Source: Octopus vulgaris (Eukaryota). From it: DNA of 64,000 bases. The stretch spans positions 34,162,001 to 34,226,000 of the forward strand of contig OX597827.1 in assembly GCA_951406725.2 (NCBI GenBank). Reading direction: 5' to 3'. A program made the position numbers and the translations under genes. This document shows, piece after piece, positions 13,131-43,800 of the stretch (positions within the stretch are counted from its first letter, which is position 1; each line of letters begins with the position of its first letter). The notes beneath the pieces were generated by a model. The model ran no database searches. It was given only the letters and a program-made list of their open reading frames with translations, and was not told the origin of the DNA.

Positions 13131-14135
13131 TAATAGGGTAGCCCAGTTTATGGGGTTACACTGTGTTTTTTGCTCATACGGCGTATCTTCAGACTCAAAA
13201 CACTGCTGGCCTGGAACCTCTTTAAAATATGGAAGGGGAATGCCTCGTTCTTGAGGTAGCAATCTCCCTTTGCGATTGTCCTTCGAAATACCAACGGGAG
13301 ATAATCACCTAGGGTTTTACGCTGTTTGAGAGAGTTCCCAGTACGCTCCACGTACTTCTGTGGGCGCGTGATATCGTTGCGCCTGTTGCTGCTGTCGTTA
13401 TACTTGTTGGTGTTGTAGGTGCTGCTGTTGTTAAAGGGTGGGCTATGTGACTGACTTGGGTGCGTATGGAGCCGTGTAGGCATTGGTGTCATGTTCAATT
13501 CCCAGTGGTTCGGCCCGTCTTTTTTTAAAACAACAAGAGCACCTACAACAGCGACAGGCGCAACGACATCACGCGCCCACAGAAGTACGTGGGTGCACTG
13601 GGAACTCTCTCAAACAGCGTATTTCCAATCATCTTTCCTCCTTCAAAGTTCCGGAAAGAAGATACGTGACATCACTGGCCAGCCATATCTGGCAATTACG
13701 AGACGAAGAGATTCCATACTCGATTGCATGGAAAATACTCAAGAACCCAGGCCCCTACGTCAACGGGACGAAACGGTGCAAGTTATGCATTGCCGAACGC
13801 ATGAGGATCCTTAAAGACTTGCTCGTGCCAGGGAAAATCCTGAACTCCAGGACGGAGATTTTCGGACCATGCCTGCTGTTTAGAAAATGTCTGCTGGCTT
13901 TTTGGAATCAGCTTGGCGGGACTACAGCTGGAACCAATAGCCAAGGCCGAAGGGAGACAATCGTATGCCTTCGTGGTGCTTTGGTGATCACAAGATGGCA
14001 GCGCGGCCGAAGATCGATATATTTTAAAGAGGTCTCAGGCCACAGCAGTTTTTGGAGTCTGAAGATACGCCATAAGGCTAAATCCCTTTTGAGCGAGAAA
14101 CTCAGAGTAACCCCATAAACCGGCCTGGTTCTGTG
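13131..14135 (+). mobile_element. Penelope-like element 3' part (GIY-YIG endonuclease, Naiad-like) preceded by an inverted partial copy
   Basis: G.TGNSLKQRISNHLSSF...TSLASHIWQL...WKIL...CKLCIAE...ILNSRTEI...C is a PLE GIY-YIG signature; ~13131-13400 is an internally deleted reverse-complement copy of ~13540-14135. Confidence 0.8.
14054..14114 (+). ncRNA. Minimal type-I hammerhead ribozyme in PLE terminal repeat
   Basis: GGAGT-CTGAAGA-[stem II TACGC...GCGA]-GAAA-CTC-A-GAG-TA-ACCCC: intact core boxes and a GUA triplet. Confidence 0.72.
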
Positions 14136-24838: not shown

Positions 24839-27056
24839 CACTGGTCAACAAAATGAAACTTTTTTTAATCATTAGAGTTGCTGATTGACTTTACTGGGTT
24901 AATTTTTGATGCCGATAACAAATCTGAAGTCTGATTTCCTCTATCAGGTCACATTTTCATGTTTATGATGCCTGCTGTTTTAACTTATAGGATACGTAAA
25001 GCATGTCTATATAAAGTATATTGAATGCAAGATACGATAATTTCATGGCTTTTTATTGTACAAAATTAAAATTATTGTTAGAATACACTCAAATGTATAA
25101 CAACTTAAAATCTTTGGGATTTAGACTTTCCATAGTGTTTTATCTCAGGTTCATCCCTGTATAACATCCAACAATAGCCAGCTAACATCCCTGCATTCCA
25201 AAATCCTTGTTCCATCGATGCAATATCTTGATGAAAGCATTCCCCTTGCTCATCGGACACTGCTCCAAGTTTCTCTGCAAAAAAGTCCAGATGTGAATCA
25301 AGGAAATGGACTTTTAATGACATCCGACAGCCCTTTGCAGCGTAGGAGTCTAGAAGACATTTCACTCCATTTCTAAACTCTAGAGATCTCTTGTCACCCA
25401 GGAAATTTTCAAAGAGCCATTTGAAGGATTCCCAGGCTTTAAGCTCAATCTCATCCAGTGCTGTGAGGAAGTGGTTGTCCTTCAGGAGTTCTTTTATCTG
25501 CGGACCTATGAATACGCCCTCCATCAGTTTTGCCTCGGTGATTTTTGGAAATTTGGCCTTCACATACTCAAAGCCTTTTGAGTTTTCCCTGGCAAGTGTC
25601 TTCACGAATTGTTTTATGAGGCCAAGCTTTATGTGAAGAGGGGGAAGAAGAATATTTTCTGGTTTTAAAAGTGGCTTACTCCGGACGCTAGAAACTCCCG
25701 GCTCATATGATTTTCGCAAAGGCCACTCTAATTGCACATAGTACTTGTTAGTTGCACGACTGTTCCATAGGCTTAAAAAGCAACAATATTTCGTGAACCC
25801 AGATTGCATTCCCATCAACATTCCAGTCACCTCCAAGTCTCCACATATTTTCCAGCTGTAGTTTGTATACTTTATGGCATTGAGGTGTACTTGCATGTTT
25901 TCATAACATTCCTTCATGTACACTGAATGTCCTATGGAAATGGATGGTTTCTTATTGTGTAGTAGTAGTGCCTTGAGGCTTCTCTTAGATGAATCATTGA
26001 ATAAGCGCCATTCAGCTGGAACATGCTCTTGGAACAAACAGCGAAATAATTCATCAATGTTACTACTGAAACTAAGTGGTCCATCAACAGAGAAGCAGAT
26101 CCCTATTTCTCTTCCTGAAATGAGTAATACAAGCATTTTTCTTAAGCAGACACTTTTCTTGTAGGCGAGATGCTAATAGTTCAGCTTTATCCTTCAACAA
26201 TGACAAGTCTCTAACTAAATCATTTAACTCTCCTTGAGAAAATTTCTGAGGTACGTCTTCATTTTCAATTGTGAAATCTGCATCCACTTCGGTATCTTCC
26301 TCAGCAGTAGTATTTTCTTCAGGAAATACATCTTCAAAAGACATCTGAAGGCCATTTTCTGGTGGTATTAAAATAGGAAGATCATCATCGTTGAGTGGTA
26401 CTGGTCTTCTTGCTGATTCCAAGCTGGGATACACAATCTTATGCTTGGTCTTTACAGTAAACCCACATACATTAACGTTGCAGAAATAACAGTCCATGAA
26501 GTGATCCTTTGGCTCTCTCCATATCATAGGTATTGCAAACGGCATTGCTCTCTTCCTCTTATTTAGCCAATCCCCAAGTCCATTTGAAGAAGCTGAGCAG
26601 ATGATGTACAGGGCCCAACTCTTATCTTGATCCCCGAGAGAGCAGCCAAAGTATAACTGGTAGATCTTCTTGATTTCACTTGTGATGGCACGTTGCTAAG
26701 CTTTGGTGGTAAATGAACCACAGACACTGACAAAATATATCAGGACTGTTCTTGCAATGCCTTGACATCCTGTGTAGAATTTGATGTTGACGATGATTTG
26801 GCACTTTAAACAGAAAGTAAAATTTATGAAAAGAAAAGGTTATGAAAACATAAATTTACAAAATGAATACAAATAGTTATAAAACAGAAGTCAGACGTTT
26901 ACGTGTAGCGATACTGTTGATGAGAGTTATATACCTCTCTTATCAGAAAAACTGTGCCTGATAGAAGGAAACCAATTACATTTTTGAAATCCACGGACAA
27001 AACTACATATAAAACACCATATAATATCCCTGATGAAAATTTGCTGTTAACCAGTG
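24839..27056 (-). mobile_element. Complete Chapaev3-type (CMC) DNA transposon
   Basis: TAA|CACTGGTCAACA ... TGTTAACCAGTG|TAA: CAC termini and a 3-bp TWA TSD enclosing a transposase. Confidence 0.88.
25105..26768 (-). pseudogene. Chapaev3-type transposase, disrupted
   Basis: MSRHCKNSPDIFC..VCG...LYFGC.LGDQDKSW, MPFAIPMIWREPKDH..DCYFC, WKICGDL, PPLHIKLGL.KQFVK, SLKVHFLDSHLDFF, GAVSDEQGE.FHQDI; one stop and at least two frameshifts. Confidence 0.88.
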
Positions 27057-34169: not shown

Positions 34170-35907
34170 GACTGATCTGGGCTGTATCAGTGATGTTTAC
34201 TCCCCAATACACTTTATCGGACATAACATTTGGCGCTCCTGATGTCTTAGCAGCAATAAAGGAAATGAAGCATAATTCAGCAGTAGGTCCTGATAGGTTC
34301 CCTGCTTGTGTTTTGAAGATGTGTCAAAACCAACTTGCACCCCCTCTAGCCAATCTGTGGCGGAACTCACTGGATGCTGGATATATACCAGAGGACCTTC
34401 TATCCCAGTCTGTTGTCCCAGTTTTCAAAAAAGGAAACAAATCGCTTGCCGTGAATTACCGTCCAATCTCACTCACCTCTCATATCATCAAGGTATTTGA
34501 GAGGGTGCTGAGATCGCGTATGACTCACTTCCTTGAGAGTCATAATATGCTGAACCCCAACCAGCATGGATTCCGTAATGGGAGAGATTGCCTGACGCAG
34601 CTACTGCATCATTTTGATGACATTTTGAGAGCCTTGAGAGAAGGTTCCAACACTGATGTCATCTATCTTGATTTCAGCAAGGCCTTTGACAGGGTTGATC
34701 ATAAGATCCTTCTGAGAAAGCTGTCCAATATTGGTGTCACTGGAAAGTTGCTGCAGTGGATCAAGTGCTTCCTGTCTAACAGAACCCAACATGTTGTAGT
34801 CGAAGGAGTCAAATCCAGCCCAGCCAAAGTCAGCAGTGGTGTCCCACAAGGCACTGTGTTGGGCCCACTTCTCTTCATCATCTACATAAATGATATTAAT
34901 GATACCATCAAACACAGTAACATCAGAACCTTCGCTGATGACTCCAAGCTCCAGAAGGTCATCAATGGCGTGGATGACCGAATAAACCTTCAGTCAGACC
35001 TACTGGCTGTTGTCCAATGGGCGGAAAAGAATAACATGTTGCTAAATGAAGACAAATTTGAACTGATCCACTTTGGAAGGGAGGACGCTCTGAAACTCCC
35101 ATACTCTCTTCATTCTGGAGAAATTCTCATGGCATCCAACAACATCAGAGACCTGGGAGTAACAGTGGACAACAACATAAGCTGGGCTACACATATAAGC
35201 AGCAAAGTTGACATGGCCCGCAGAATGTGTTCCTGGATTCTCAGAACCTTCCAGTCGAGAGATTCCCACGCTATTATCCTTCTCTTCTCCACTTTTGCCC
35301 GACCCCACCTTGAATACTGCTGTCCGCTGTGGTCTCCCTACACAAAACAAAATATTATGAGAATTGAAGCTCCCCAAAGGTCAATCACAAAAAAGATAGA
35401 TGGCATGTCAGACCTTGACTACTGGGGTAGACTAGAGAAGCTGAAATTGTATTCACTCCAACGACGCCGTGAACGCTACATTATCTGTATGATGTGGAAA
35501 ATATTCCACCAGCACTGTCCGAATGATGTTAGCATCACCTTCAAAATGCATCCAAGGCTTGGACCACGTGCCATCCGTCCACAACAAAAATCTAAATCGC
35601 ATCACATAACGACAATACGGCACAACTATTTCACCTCAATTGGACCTGCTCTCTTCAACATTACACCAGGGCACGTCAAAAAAGAAACTGACCACACAAA
35701 ATTCAAGAAGTCTTTGGACAAATTCCTTCAAACAGTACTGGACAAACCACCCACACCTGGATATGTCTCCGCAAACAATAACTCTCTGCTCGAATGGGCC
35801 TTGGTGCCCAAATCCTGAACTGAAAGACTTCACCAGGTGGTGCTATTAAGTTAGACATGGCCTGGGCCAATACTGGCCAAAACCTTTCTAAGTTATTCTA
35901 AGTTATA
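34170..35907 (+). mobile_element. 5'-truncated CR1-like LINE
   Basis: RT ORF, ~90-nt 3'UTR and tandem tail (TTCTAAGTTA)2, embedded in TA-rich microsatellite on both sides. Confidence 0.9.
34190..35818 (+). CDS. LINE ORF2 reverse transcriptase and C-terminal region (CR1-like), N-terminally truncated
   Basis: [43 protein letters not shown] and RPHLEYC motifs; no stops over 542 codons; endonuclease domain absent. Confidence 0.92.
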
Positions 35908-36142: not shown

Positions 36143-36984
36143 ATTCCATGCTGCCGATTACGTCTTATATCTTGAATAGCCGTGTTGAGTCGTTCCATCT
36201 GTTTTGACTGTTTGGATCCATTCAAACAATTTGTAATGGATAATCCCTTCCCAGTCCCACCATACACACAACATCGTTTTGCATGGATGAAGATCTTGTT
36301 TAATGCATGTTACTTGTCTGCCAGGGCTAAGCCATTCCTTATGCTGCTTCATATTGATGTACAGGCACCATTTTTCTTCGTCAGCAACGAGTCAGTAAAG
36401 AAATTGTTGCTTGTGTCCATGAGTTGAGTGTTGACGAGCAAGCAAACCGGCGGAGATTATGGCTTGTTGATTTTTGTTGTCACTTAAAGCATGCAGAACC
36501 CATGCTCCAAACTTCTGAACCTTTCCCATCAAGTGAAGATGCTTCTCTATAGTAGTGTGGAAGCATTCCATTTTCTCTGCCAGTTCCTTTGTCGTTTGAT
36601 GAGAATTTTCATCAAACTCAACTGGATGGCCAGAACAAAGTGCGTCTTTGAGGTCAAAATTACCATTTTTGAACTTGGCATACCAATCATGAGTGGTTCT
36701 TTCAGCTATGGCACCCTCTCCGTACGCAGCTTTTGCAGCCTTAGAACCTTGATTAAAAGCAAAAAGGAGGAGGTGTTGAAAATGCTCCTTATTTTTTTAA
36801 TTGACATTATATTTTAACAATCTGAAAATAGGCAAAAATTAACTAAAATTACCTAGAAAAGAAACAAAATAGATTCCAAAATGATACAAAAATAGAATTC
36901 TTGGAAAAATATAGATTCCAAAATTTAAAAACGCAATAAATTCCAAATTTTAAAAGAACACCAGGAACTTAGTTGCCAACCCAA
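36143..36984 (-). mobile_element. Degraded mariner (5' half)
   Basis: Minus-strand TA|TTGGGTTGGCAACTAAGTTC mariner TIR and MLCVWWDWEGIIHY transposase peptide. Confidence 0.85.
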
Positions 36985-39425: not shown

Positions 39426-39488
<63 letters not shown>

Positions 39489-39509
39489 ATATATATGTAT
39501 ATATATATA

Positions 39510-39558
<49 letters not shown>

Positions 39559-39863
39559 ATATATATGTATATATATATATGTGTGTGTGTGTGTATATAT
39601 ATGTATATATATATGTATATGTTTGTGTACATATGTGTATATATATATGTATCTATATGTGTATATATATGTATATATATATATATATATATGTATATAT
39701 GTGTATATATATATATATATGTATGTATATATATATATGTATATTTGTGTATATATATGTACATATATGTATGTATATATAAGTATATATATATGTTTAT
39801 ATATATATGTATATATGTATGTGTATATAAATATGTATATATATATGTATGTATATATATATG

Positions 39864-39895
<32 letters not shown>

Positions 39896-39971
39896 TCATC
39901 ATCATCATCGTTTGCGTCCGTTTTCCATCTAGCATGGGTTGGACCATATATATGTATATAAATATATTTTA

Positions 39972-40035
<64 letters not shown>

Positions 40036-40265
40036 GTAGAAGGTTGAAAAGGAACACATGAGTTGATATATATGGAAAAAAAATGTCAAGGTAGAAAATG
40101 CTACACTAATTTTATAAAAAAATTTCAGTACCAGTTTCATTCATTGAGATTTTTTCAGCTGTAAGTATGGAAAACAAATTTTAGAAAAATTATAAGAATA
40201 TTTGCATAGTGTTCAAATACAAGTGGTATTTTCCTTGTTTCTGTCTGTTTCTGTCTCTCTTTGTT

Positions 40266-40522
40266 GGAAAACCATGCATATGTCTTCAAAACCTTTCATT
40301 CTTCAGTGGGTCAGAGTTTCAGACCCAATCAAATATGGCAGAAGTTCGAGAATATATCTTCCAAGACAGTAGTTATCCTGGTACTCAGTTTGTTTAACCT
40401 TGTTATCAACCAGCCCAATATAGTGCAGGCTGCAGTTAATGCACAACCTACACCTGAGAACAAGTGCTCAACTATTAATTTTGACAATTCTTCTCATGAA
40501 GGCCGTGCTTGTTGCCAAAAGA
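40266..40522 (+). pseudogene. Duplicated fragment of the ZNF CDS (source 42209-42475)
   Basis: Direct alignment shows high identity with a 1-bp insertion, a CAA>TAA stop and an 11-bp deletion; flanked by inverted arms. Confidence 0.95.
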
Positions 40523-40723
40523 GTAAACAAGAGAGACAGAAACAGATAGAAACAAGGAAAATGCCACTTGTATTTGAACACTATGCAAATATTCTTTTAA
40601 AAACTTTTCCTTTCATTTTTCAAAAATTTAATTGTTTTCCGTACTTATAGTCGAAAAAGTTTCAGGTACTGAAATGTTTTTTATAAAATTACTTTACCAT
40701 TTTCTACCATGACTTTTTTTCCA

Positions 40724-40795
<72 letters not shown>

Positions 40796-40883
40796 TGTAT
40801 GTATGTATGTATGTATGTATGTATGTATGTATGTATGTATGTGTGTATGTATGTATGTATGTATGTATGTATGTATGTATGTA

Positions 40884-40977
<94 letters not shown>

Positions 40978-41364: not shown

Positions 41365-42192
41365 TATATGTTTATATATATATATATATATTGCATAGTG
41401 ATTGATTCAATGAACTATATTTCCTTTATTACAAATGTTTTTAGGTTTTGTGTTTATACCAAAAATCATTAATAATAATTTTAAAAAAGTAAAAGAAATA
41501 AATTTAAAATGTAATTATGACTTCTATCTTTCTTTCTTTTCTTTTTTTTTATATAATTTTCAGATTTATAGCTGGTCTTGTTTAAGTGCAGTGATAACTA
41601 CATGGTTGAGGTAGCATTTACCAACTGTTCATATTCGACTGCAGAAAAATCCCTGCTCTCACCTGAAACCTTAAAAAACTGGATGTAAACCCAACACAGA
41701 AAATAAAAATAAATGAAAAACCAAAATTAAACAGAAAAGGATTATTTGAAACAATATCTAAATTGCAATGGATATTTTTCCTATACAGAGAAATCTTTGT
41801 TTTTATAACACCTTCATTTCAAACTGGAACTGAACCTTTTTTAGCAAAATTTTCTACTCCACACAATTTCTTTTGTGAAAAATGTTAATGGCTGTTTAAT
41901 TCTTGGATTCCATAATATGTCAGGAAGTTGAATTGAGAGAATACGAAAACAAAGTGGTGAAAAAGCTAAGGAGAAAAAAAAAATACCCCTTCCTTTTAAA
42001 TGTCAACTATTGGAAGCTTCTAATGATGCTTTCCTTAATAGTTATAAATCATGTGGCACATCTATATATGAGTGTTTAATATCTTTGAATAGAGGAATAT
42101 TTGTTTGAAGGAGGTTTATAATATGATATTCGTAAAAAAGTAACATCACAAAGTGATTTGAGAAATTAAGCCTTCATTTATCATTATAAATA

Positions 42193-43800
42193 ATGTCACA
42201 CTTGGGTGGGAAAACCATGCATATGTCTTCAAAACCTTTCGTTCCTCAGGGGTCAGAGTTTCAGACCCAATCAAATATGGCAGAAGTTCGAGAATATATC
42301 TTCCAAGACAGTAGTTATCCTGGTACTCAGTTTGTTCAACCTTGTTATCAACCAGCTGAACTAAGGCCCAATATAGTGCAGGCTGCAGTTAATGAACAGC
42401 CTACACCTGAGAACAAGAGCTCAACCATTAATTTTGACAATTCTTCCCATGAAGGCTGTGCTTGTTGCCAAAAGACATGTCAGTGCCCTAGCTGTACTGA
42501 TGGTGGAAACGGTAATGGAAGTGGTGTTGGCACTAGCAATAGCAGCAATATAGGAGAACATAACATTTGCAATGTTAGTGAACAACCTGTCACCAATATG
42601 CCAATTCAGACGACTGGAAATGGAAAAAAGCAGCTATTTTGTGAATTTTGTGGAAAGAAATTTGTCCAAGAATATGTCCTGAAGGTCCACAGGCGTAAAC
42701 ATACTGGGGAAAAGCCATATGAATGTGAAATCTGCTCCAAGAAATTTGCCAGAAATGATACCCTACGCAAACACAAGAGAATTCATACTGGACAGCCAAA
42801 CGGCAGCGTTTCTAATGTTGGTATCTCTCCTAGTTTGAGTTTAATGATTGCGCAAGGTGTTGTTGCCCAGGAAAATGGTGTAACCAATCCTGGGAACCCA
42901 GGCACTATGATGTCTTCTGTTTCTAATTCTCAGACGTCTCAGAGAAACAGTCAGAAATCATATACCTGTGACATTTGCTTGAAACCGTTTGCTCAGCGCC
43001 ATTATTTACAGATCCATAAACGAACCCATACAGGTGAGCGCCCTTTTCACTGTCAGGTTTGTGAGCGAAGTTTCACCCGTAGAGACACACTGATTATTCA
43101 TCAGCGGACTCACACTGGCGTGAAACCATTTCATTGTGAAATCTGCATGCAACAATTTGCACACAAACACAACCTCCAGATACACAAACGGAAACATACC
43201 GGGGAGAAACTGTTTCAATGTGACATCTGCGCTGAACTGTTCACACGCCGTGATTATTTACAAATTCATCGGCGGACTCATACAGGAGAGAAACCCTTCC
43301 AGTGTGATCTCTGTATCCAGAAGTTTGCCCGTCGCACCACATTGGAAATTCACAGACGAACACACACAGGGGAGAAGCCATTCCACTGTGAGTTCTGTGG
43401 GAAACAATTTGCCAATCGAGACAAGCTTCGCATACACCAGAGAACACATGTACGCAAGAAGCCACACCAGTGCACTATATGTCTAAAGAAGTTTGCACGG
43501 AGAGATACACTTGAAATTCACAGCCGGAGACACTCTGGCCTCAAGCCATTCCATTGTGACATTTGTCTGAAGAAATTTGCACAGAAAGATTACCTTCAGA
43601 TTCATAAGAACACTGTGCACTCGGGACAGAAACCTTTCCAATGTGACCTCTGCACACAGAAGTTCTCCCGCCGTGATTCTCTGCAGCGGCACAAGAAAAC
43701 ACACTATAAACAGGTTGATGAAGTGCAGAAGGCCACATCTAGCATCACAAATAACAATGTGGAAGAGGTGCAGCCACTGAATAAATACTTATGGTTGTAA
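42193..43800 (+). CDS. C2H2 zinc-finger protein, 535 aa, 11 fingers (2+9)
   Basis: Intact ORF with 11 CxxC...HxxxH fingers and TGEKPF-type linkers; strong polypyrimidine acceptor ending CAG at 41563, implying ~630 nt of 5'UTR in the same exon. Confidence 0.95.
   Translation: MSHLGGKTMHMSSKPFVPQGSEFQTQSNMAEVREYIFQDSSYPGTQFVQPCYQPAELRPNIVQAAVNEQPTPENKSSTINFDNSSHEGCACCQKTCQCPSCTDGGNGNGSGVGTSNSSNIGEHNICNVSEQPVTNMPIQTTGNGKKQLFCEFCGKKFVQEYVLKVHRRKHTGEKPYECEICSKKFARNDTLRKHKRIHTGQPNGSVSNVGISPSLSLMIAQGVVAQENGVTNPGNPGTMMSSVSNSQTSQRNSQKSYTCDICLKPFAQRHYLQIHKRTHTGERPFHCQVCERSFTRRDTLIIHQRTHTGVKPFHCEICMQQFAHKHNLQIHKRKHTGEKLFQCDICAELFTRRDYLQIHRRTHTGEKPFQCDLCIQKFARRTTLEIHRRTHTGEKPFHCEFCGKQFANRDKLRIHQRTHVRKKPHQCTICLKKFARRDTLEIHSRRHSGLKPFHCDICLKKFAQKDYLQIHKNTVHSGQKPFQCDLCTQKFSRRDSLQRHKKTHYKQVDEVQKATSSITNNNVEEVQPLNKYLWL

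Follow-up and report, generated by a model that had tools for sequence, protein, structure and literature searches.

Pack-MULEs and other Pack-type elements carry a host gene fragment between inverted arms, and these arms are transposase-bound TIRs. The octopus cassette described here differs from them: its arms are retroelement ends, and its captured piece has been neither moved nor amplified. Among Penelope-like elements (PLEs) a head-to-head layout of two copies is known (PMC8557442). The inverted pLTR insertions of EN+ Neptune PLEs, as far as the accessible parts of the papers describe them, share several properties with our locus. These are a 5'-truncated copy joined in inverted orientation to the 5' end, an optional tail of 30-40 bp on one end only, TA microsatellite targets, a hammerhead-like motif of the minimal type, and a Cys-rich linker between the RT and the C-terminal GIY-YIG (PMC8557442, PMC11167929, PMC3846280). 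In the pairs described in those parts of the papers, however, the inverted copy adjoins directly, with no patch of neighbourhood host DNA at the junction, whereas the octopus cassette has one (PMC8557442, PMC11167929, PMC3846280).

Unspliced host sequence framed by PLE ends was likewise reported in Adineta vaga (the NRPS gene, Pen1 spacers), along with a few non-coding sequences between solo pLTRs (PMC3846280). There, the NRPS gene has pLTRs in direct orientation on its two sides and had been carried to another locus, while the octopus pieces of 80-260 bp sit at an inverted junction at most 2.6 kb from their source (PMC3846280). Templated insertions and twin priming of L1 also resemble the octopus case in the use of a short genomic template (< ~250 bp), in microhomology and in the extension of both DNA ends by the RT; the L1 templates, seen in 22 of ~3,600 insertions, are reported to come as a rule from no more than 15 bp away (10.1101/2024.08.27.596794; PMC11702581). 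The PLE pairs share the short genomic template (82-257 bp) but are unlike L1 in that it is 0.5-2.6 kb away and not ~15 bp, in that captures are present in 5/35 pairs of a selected set, and in being fixed in the germ line. Adineta thus provides a precedent for host DNA caught between PLE ends, and L1 one for templated insertions; the new observation is recurrent capture from 0.5-2.6 kb at an inverted PLE junction, of which we found no description in our search of the openly accessible literature.

The cassette was found in a window of 64,000 nucleotides of Octopus vulgaris DNA (contig OX597827.1, positions 34,162,001 to 34,226,000), by which we mean the whole stretch that was analysed. The features of the window are listed in Table 1.

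Table 1. Features of the cassette, of its source gene and of the rest of the window (window coordinates).
Feature	Position	Strand	Basis or remark
TA-rich microsatellite, left part of target site	39427..40035	.	TRF
Optional 32-bp PLE tail of left copy	40036..40067	-	common to other copies
Left arm, 5'-truncated 3' end (pLTR region) of Neptune-like Penelope, 3' end leftward	40068..40265	-
Decayed minimal hammerhead motif in left arm	40126..40161	-	sequence; no Rfam match
Captured pseudogenised ZNF coding copy	40266..40522	+	matches 42209-42475
Right arm, second 5'-truncated PLE 3' end, no tail, 3' end rightward	40519..40728	+
Hammerhead remnant with 12-bp deletion, right arm	40648..40671	+
TA/TATG/TG microsatellite, right part of target site	40726..40966	.
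Source of captured piece: 8 bp before first ATG and N-terminal CDS of ZNF	42209..42475	+
Intact C2H2 zinc-finger ORF, first ATG 42217	42190..43800	+
Second C2H2 zinc-finger frame, 388 aa	4247-5413	-
C-terminal GIY-YIG-like fragment of another PLE family	13480-14118	+	label by eye
Decayed transposase-like frame (presumed)	25105-26695	-
LINE RT frame, 548 aa (presumed)	34172-35818	+
Decayed transposase-like frame (presumed)	36392-36796	-

The initial annotation had described reverse-complement arms around a 257-bp decayed copy of the start of the adjacent zinc-finger (ZNF) gene, TA-rich microsatellites on both sides, and a hammerhead-like motif in the left arm that is partly deleted in the right one. 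All of these features were recovered. Aligned with each other in reverse complement, the two arms (40068-40261 and 40529-40728) are 77.6% identical with gaps (E 1e-46), with 14 substitutions in 180 aligned columns, and the insert matches its source in direct orientation at 91.9% with gaps. The left arm itself stood as described but not its start at 40068, since the true start, with the tail included, is at 40036. The inner ~70 bp of the arms, said to be more alike than the outer parts, did not differ significantly from them (mismatches 3/70 inner vs 11/110 outer, Fisher p 0.25). Both cassette ends lie in microsatellite.

Judged by its sequence, each arm is the 3' end of a Neptune-like Penelope retroelement that is present in many copies. 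When the genome was searched with the left arm, 1,882 candidates came up, 40 of which were scored and showed 81-90% identity; a 26-base arm motif had 768 exact genome matches, compared to 0 for the reversed control. Longer copies run inward from the arm via a (GAA)n tract to a GIY-YIG frame, then to a C-x4-C-x2-C linker and to RT motifs. RT-like frames with a YLDD motif (read by eye) are located inward of the arm in loci L033, L118, L120 and L131, while a Pfam search with three RT fragments gave no match. The GIY-YIG domain PF01541 was detected at L034:1667-2002 with E 0.0036 and 18 bits, below the 22.6 cut-off, in a decayed copy; the same frame is also present in L118, L088 and L120. The Cys-rich linker was seen between RT and EN in L118, L120 and L131. 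Such a linker defines Neptune (PMC3846280); our assignment was made from domains and layout.

Among 100 sampled copies (the first 100 listed motif matches, from contigs C1 and C2) we observed 16 head-to-head pairs and 84 solo copies. The PLE-type head-to-head integration suggested for the cassette is supported. The junctions of the 16 pairs had 0-17 non-element bases or element sequence only. The 3' end stood against a microsatellite in 82/100 copies, and the tail motif was present in 18/100; a PLE tail is described in PMC11167929 and PMC8557442 and is explained by two RT start sites (PMC11167929). The two cassette arms, each ~7% away from the family majority, have just 2 non-majority bases in common.

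For the same 100 copies, a relaxed minimal hammerhead motif was found in 74, with the core TTGAAAA in 71, an intact helix II in 31 and CCGG in 50. We take TTGAAAA to be the U3-A8 core. The left-arm motif of the cassette differs from the family in the core, in helix II and in the CCGG palindrome, and the right-arm motif has lost 12 bp. An Rfam scan of the cassette returned no hammerhead and no other real match, and folding of the hammerhead region as a monomer gave no ribozyme fold. Both cassette copies of this motif, of the minimal type described in PMC4209133, are decayed. Besides this family, a second hammerhead-bearing repeat family (L143, L144, L145, L149, L153) also forms inverted pairs around TA tracts.

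The captured piece differs from its source by 9 substitutions, six of which alter the protein, by a 1-bp insertion and by an 11-bp deletion. With a frameshift near 40307, a stop at 40395 (CAA>TAA) and the deletion located after 40412, it reads as a dead fragment. It was copied from the first part of an intact frame of 536 codons, which has C2H2 Pfam matches. A relative, P0002, is 65% identical and covers the N-terminal part as well. A protein search with the N-terminal part alone gave no match. For the putative position of the cassette in an intron of the ZNF gene, the sequence shows one sign, an acceptor-like site at 41563. At position 40446 the insert has A where the ZNF gene of the window has G (42399, a synonymous difference), and a contig of the gene from organism D also has A; the capture may therefore predate the A/G change in the gene.

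We then considered whether other arm pairs hold other host fragments, a check proposed along with the description of the cassette. Eight spaced-motif searches, with ~110-500 bases between the inner arm motifs, produced 50 distinct loci. Fourteen were dropped (other families, single arms, chance), and the remaining 36, the cassette included, are pairs of the Penelope family. A host piece of at least 75 bp was present in 6/36 pairs (5/35 without the cassette locus), so the high-copy arms do enclose host fragments elsewhere. All six sources are 0.5-2.6 kb away, three of them direct and three inverted, and the claimed capture of local host sequence is upheld both at the cassette and across the six loci. 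The captured pieces range from 82 to 257 bp, and the five other than that of the cassette (257 bp, source 1.7 kb away, direct) from 82 to 189 bp. They are found in L151 (111 bp, 0.85 kb away, inverted, 92%), L154 (189 bp, 1.0 kb, inverted, 85%), L157 (82 bp, 0.55 kb, direct, 90%), L159 (134 bp, 2.5-2.6 kb, direct, 88%) and L201 (G000:C11:25132840-25133345; 117 bp, 0.6 kb, inverted, 100%). Uniqueness was checked genome-wide for the cassette insert and L159, against ~1 Mb of loci for L151, L154 and L157, and within the 3.5-kb locus for L201.

The sources are of different kinds. The L159 piece derives from a decayed LINE, and of 28 other matches in the genome the local copy scores highest. The L157 piece begins 14 nt inside an intron and then enters a coding exon with an 80% match to an annotated protein; as it spans an intron-exon border, its template was unspliced and was not a mature mRNA. 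The sources of L151, L154 and L201 have no evident coding frame. A shown coding exon is thus the source in only one of the five other captures; most of the pieces are not gene fragments, and an enrichment of exons among the sources cannot be claimed. In the L201 source, possibly a first exon, there is what we take to be a CCAAT-like box, with a donor-like site downstream of it. The L154 source (L166:1207-1393) has, at a distance of ~200 bp, a CpG-rich stretch, perhaps a promoter, that contains a GCCATTTT motif, presumably YY1-like.

In the unselected sample of 100 copies, a host insert was found in 0/16 pairs; the difference from 5/35 selected pairs has p 0.17, and the rate among all pairs is uncertain. 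Among 59 solo copies inspected together with 8 kb of surrounding sequence, a clear and unique local piece was seen in 0 (2 ambiguous). Three candidate captures were rejected: L128 holds a tandem repeat from next door, and L121 and L051 hold common repeats. No local source was found within 20 kb for the short spacers of L155, L160 and L186, which seem to be element-derived or untemplated. In L187 (G000:C5:90158130-90158549) two short arms surround ~280 bp of the element's own RT region, for which there was no local source within 20 kb. Element-internal pieces are thus present at the junctions of L187 and also of L120, and the piece in L187 indicates that end-switching occurred there while element RNA was present. 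Capture of host DNA between Penelope ends is a recurring by-product and not a new gene-carrying mobile element.

Further inverted structures were seen as well. L101, L111, L116, L181, L182 and L208 have inverted duplications with (TA)n at their centre, some of which coincide with the 5' junction of a solo copy, and such TA-centred fold-backs seem common in the genome. L162 (G000:C10:40052998-40053360) is a near-perfect long palindrome of an unrelated repeat.

At the right junction of the cassette, AAGA (40519-40522) is common to the ZNF source and the element, a microhomology of 4 bp (7/8 with one mismatch); the left junction has an imperfect overlap only. Reading the 12 junctions of the six loci by eye, we found microhomology of 2-5 bp at about half, and short fillers, slipped repeats or element pieces at the remaining ones. 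With respect to age, the arms pooled over loci differ at 66/1323 sites (5.0%) and the pieces differ from their sources at 52/877 (5.9%), p 0.34. These similar values suggest that the capture is about as old as the insertion. At the cassette, the arms differ from each other by 7.8%, and the insert differs by 3.5% from a source that is under coding constraint. The per-locus ages scatter both ways: in L201 the piece differs at 0/117 sites and the arms at 9/312, while in L159 the numbers are 16/134 and 10/204. The L201 piece, identical to its source, is the youngest capture; slipped repeats then follow at its junction.

The most likely reading, to which we give an even chance, is that a local patch, copied in during integration from 1.7 kb away, joined two cDNA ends in the TA microsatellite. 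The element endonuclease would cut both strands, and each cut end would prime reverse transcription on element RNA, with two cDNAs growing toward each other. One cDNA end would then let go, pair over a few bases with chromosomal DNA close by that resection or strand invasion had exposed, be extended by 80-260 nt by the element RT or by a host repair polymerase, and be joined to the other cDNA. The patch would be a one-off at each locus and would decay neutrally. A purified protein of another PLE was reported to cut and extend both strands in vitro (PMC11167929). The short microhomologies and fillers at the junctions and the agreement of the pooled ages speak for this order of events, as do sources that include a decayed LINE and sequence with no evident coding frame. 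On the other hand, the absence of host inserts in the 16 unselected pairs and of clear pieces in the 59 solo copies, as well as the scatter of ages in L201 and L159, argue against it. Two arms with just two non-majority bases in common do not prove a single template RNA, the data at hand do not separate a DNA template from unspliced RNA, and the L1 templates reported in 10.1101/2024.08.27.596794 are typically found within 15 bp of the insertion, not kilobases away.

The confinement of captures to pairs would also fit a later event. The pair could have been inserted as a near-perfect palindrome that broke at its centre, by cruciform or hairpin cleavage, and was patched by host repair from nearby DNA, which stabilised the palindrome. 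We consider this unlikely. Palindromes are described as breaking at the centre and as being stabilised by spacers (review PMC8701086), and the arms of the capture loci end within ~2-40 nt of symmetry. Captures were present in 5/51 other pairs and in 0/59 solo copies (p 0.02), where the pairs had partly been selected for wide spacers, and the L201 piece looks younger than its arms. However, no age difference between arms and pieces is seen in the pooled data, near-symmetric pairs with no host spacer persist (L024, L179, L175), and the element-internal pieces at junctions need element RNA. Moreover, the same review describes centre repair as mostly deletion (93% of 118), with inclusion of a spacer uncommon (PMC8701086).

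A jump of the PLE RT at integration onto nascent unspliced RNA of the target locus is an unlikely alternative route to the same product. Two of the six sources (the cassette and L157) are coding exons, and PLEs are reported to retain introns and, in Adineta, to have carried an intron-containing gene between pLTRs (PMC3846280). Both orientations of the piece would be possible, because either cDNA can jump; for the same reason, orientation cannot separate the mechanisms. Without the cassette locus, however, the sources with a shown exon drop to 1/5, the others being a decayed LINE or sequence with no evident coding frame; capture of a distant transcript was seen in 0/6 cases, and transcription of the sources is putative.

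A DNA element of the Pack or fold-back type, moving as one unit with host gene fragments as its cargo, would explain why a gene piece is enclosed by long inverted arms and why other pairs have other pieces. This reading, and with it a Pack-like capture in the sense of a mobile carrier, is largely refuted and highly improbable, since a genome search for further copies found the insert at two places only (the cassette and its source), so that the cassette has not spread as an amplified element, no distant cassette was seen, the 6/6 pieces adjoin their sources within 2.6 kb, and the arms are retroelement 3' ends, 84/100 of them solo, that lead into RT and GIY-YIG.

An assembly artefact is hardly to be believed either. 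Long microsatellites on both sides, the absence of a contig across the whole cassette in the four sequencing runs and a contig comparison limited to the right junction would be compatible with it. The insert, however, bears 11 changes of its own relative to the source, and there are five parallel cases at other loci. In addition, a 180-bp contig identical to 40365-40544 was present in 2/4 sequencing runs (X2, X3) with two organism labels from two studies; one of these runs may be the assembly's own sample. This contig covers the right side of the cassette; it spans the cassette-specific deletion and just 22 letters of the right arm, fewer than our 31-letter rule for junction bridging. A contig of 97 bp in run X6 is identical to left-arm sequence. 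In X6 and X9 (organisms C and D), the insert was represented by source-type alleles alone; contigs drop variants, and hence no empty site is claimed. A 960-bp contig of X3 with cassette alleles was left out, as its other 831 letters are off the stretch and it is possibly collapsed with the gene.

If transcribed, the cassette is predicted to fold as a long hairpin (-265 kcal/mol, z -25), in agreement with the hairpin that had been envisaged with gene-homologous sequence in the loop. The ZNF piece forms this loop in the same sense as the gene; the double-stranded RNA would therefore consist of the PLE arms, as in many other pairs. The further proposal of an ADAR or small-RNA substrate found no support: we saw no excess of A>G or T>C in the cassette (T>C and A>G make up 1 and 0 of the 9 substitutions in the insert; the left arm has 2/13 and the right arm 4/12), and the piece in the loop has the sense of the gene. 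Regulation by small RNAs from the cassette appears unlikely, and the locus is most likely functionless.

How PLEs form inverted ends is stated to be unresolved in PMC8557442 and PMC11167929. The six junctions, each recording a template 0.5-2.6 kb away, provide a genome-scale read-out of the PLE joining step with respect to distance, strand, splicing state and arm symmetry. PLE insertions can also make short local duplications that annotation may mistake for pseudogenes or Pack elements. A bolder proposal, which we put forward tentatively as possible though not probable, is that the two free cDNA ends are bridged by the telomerase-related RT of the PLE copying 80-260 nt of DNA or nascent RNA from within ~3 kb, in up to 1 pair in 7. 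If this were true, the captures would be a legible trace of how PLE transposition completes its unexplained joining step and, with PLE pairs numbering in the thousands in each cephalopod genome, they would regularly supply the germ line with short local duplications, pieces of exons included.
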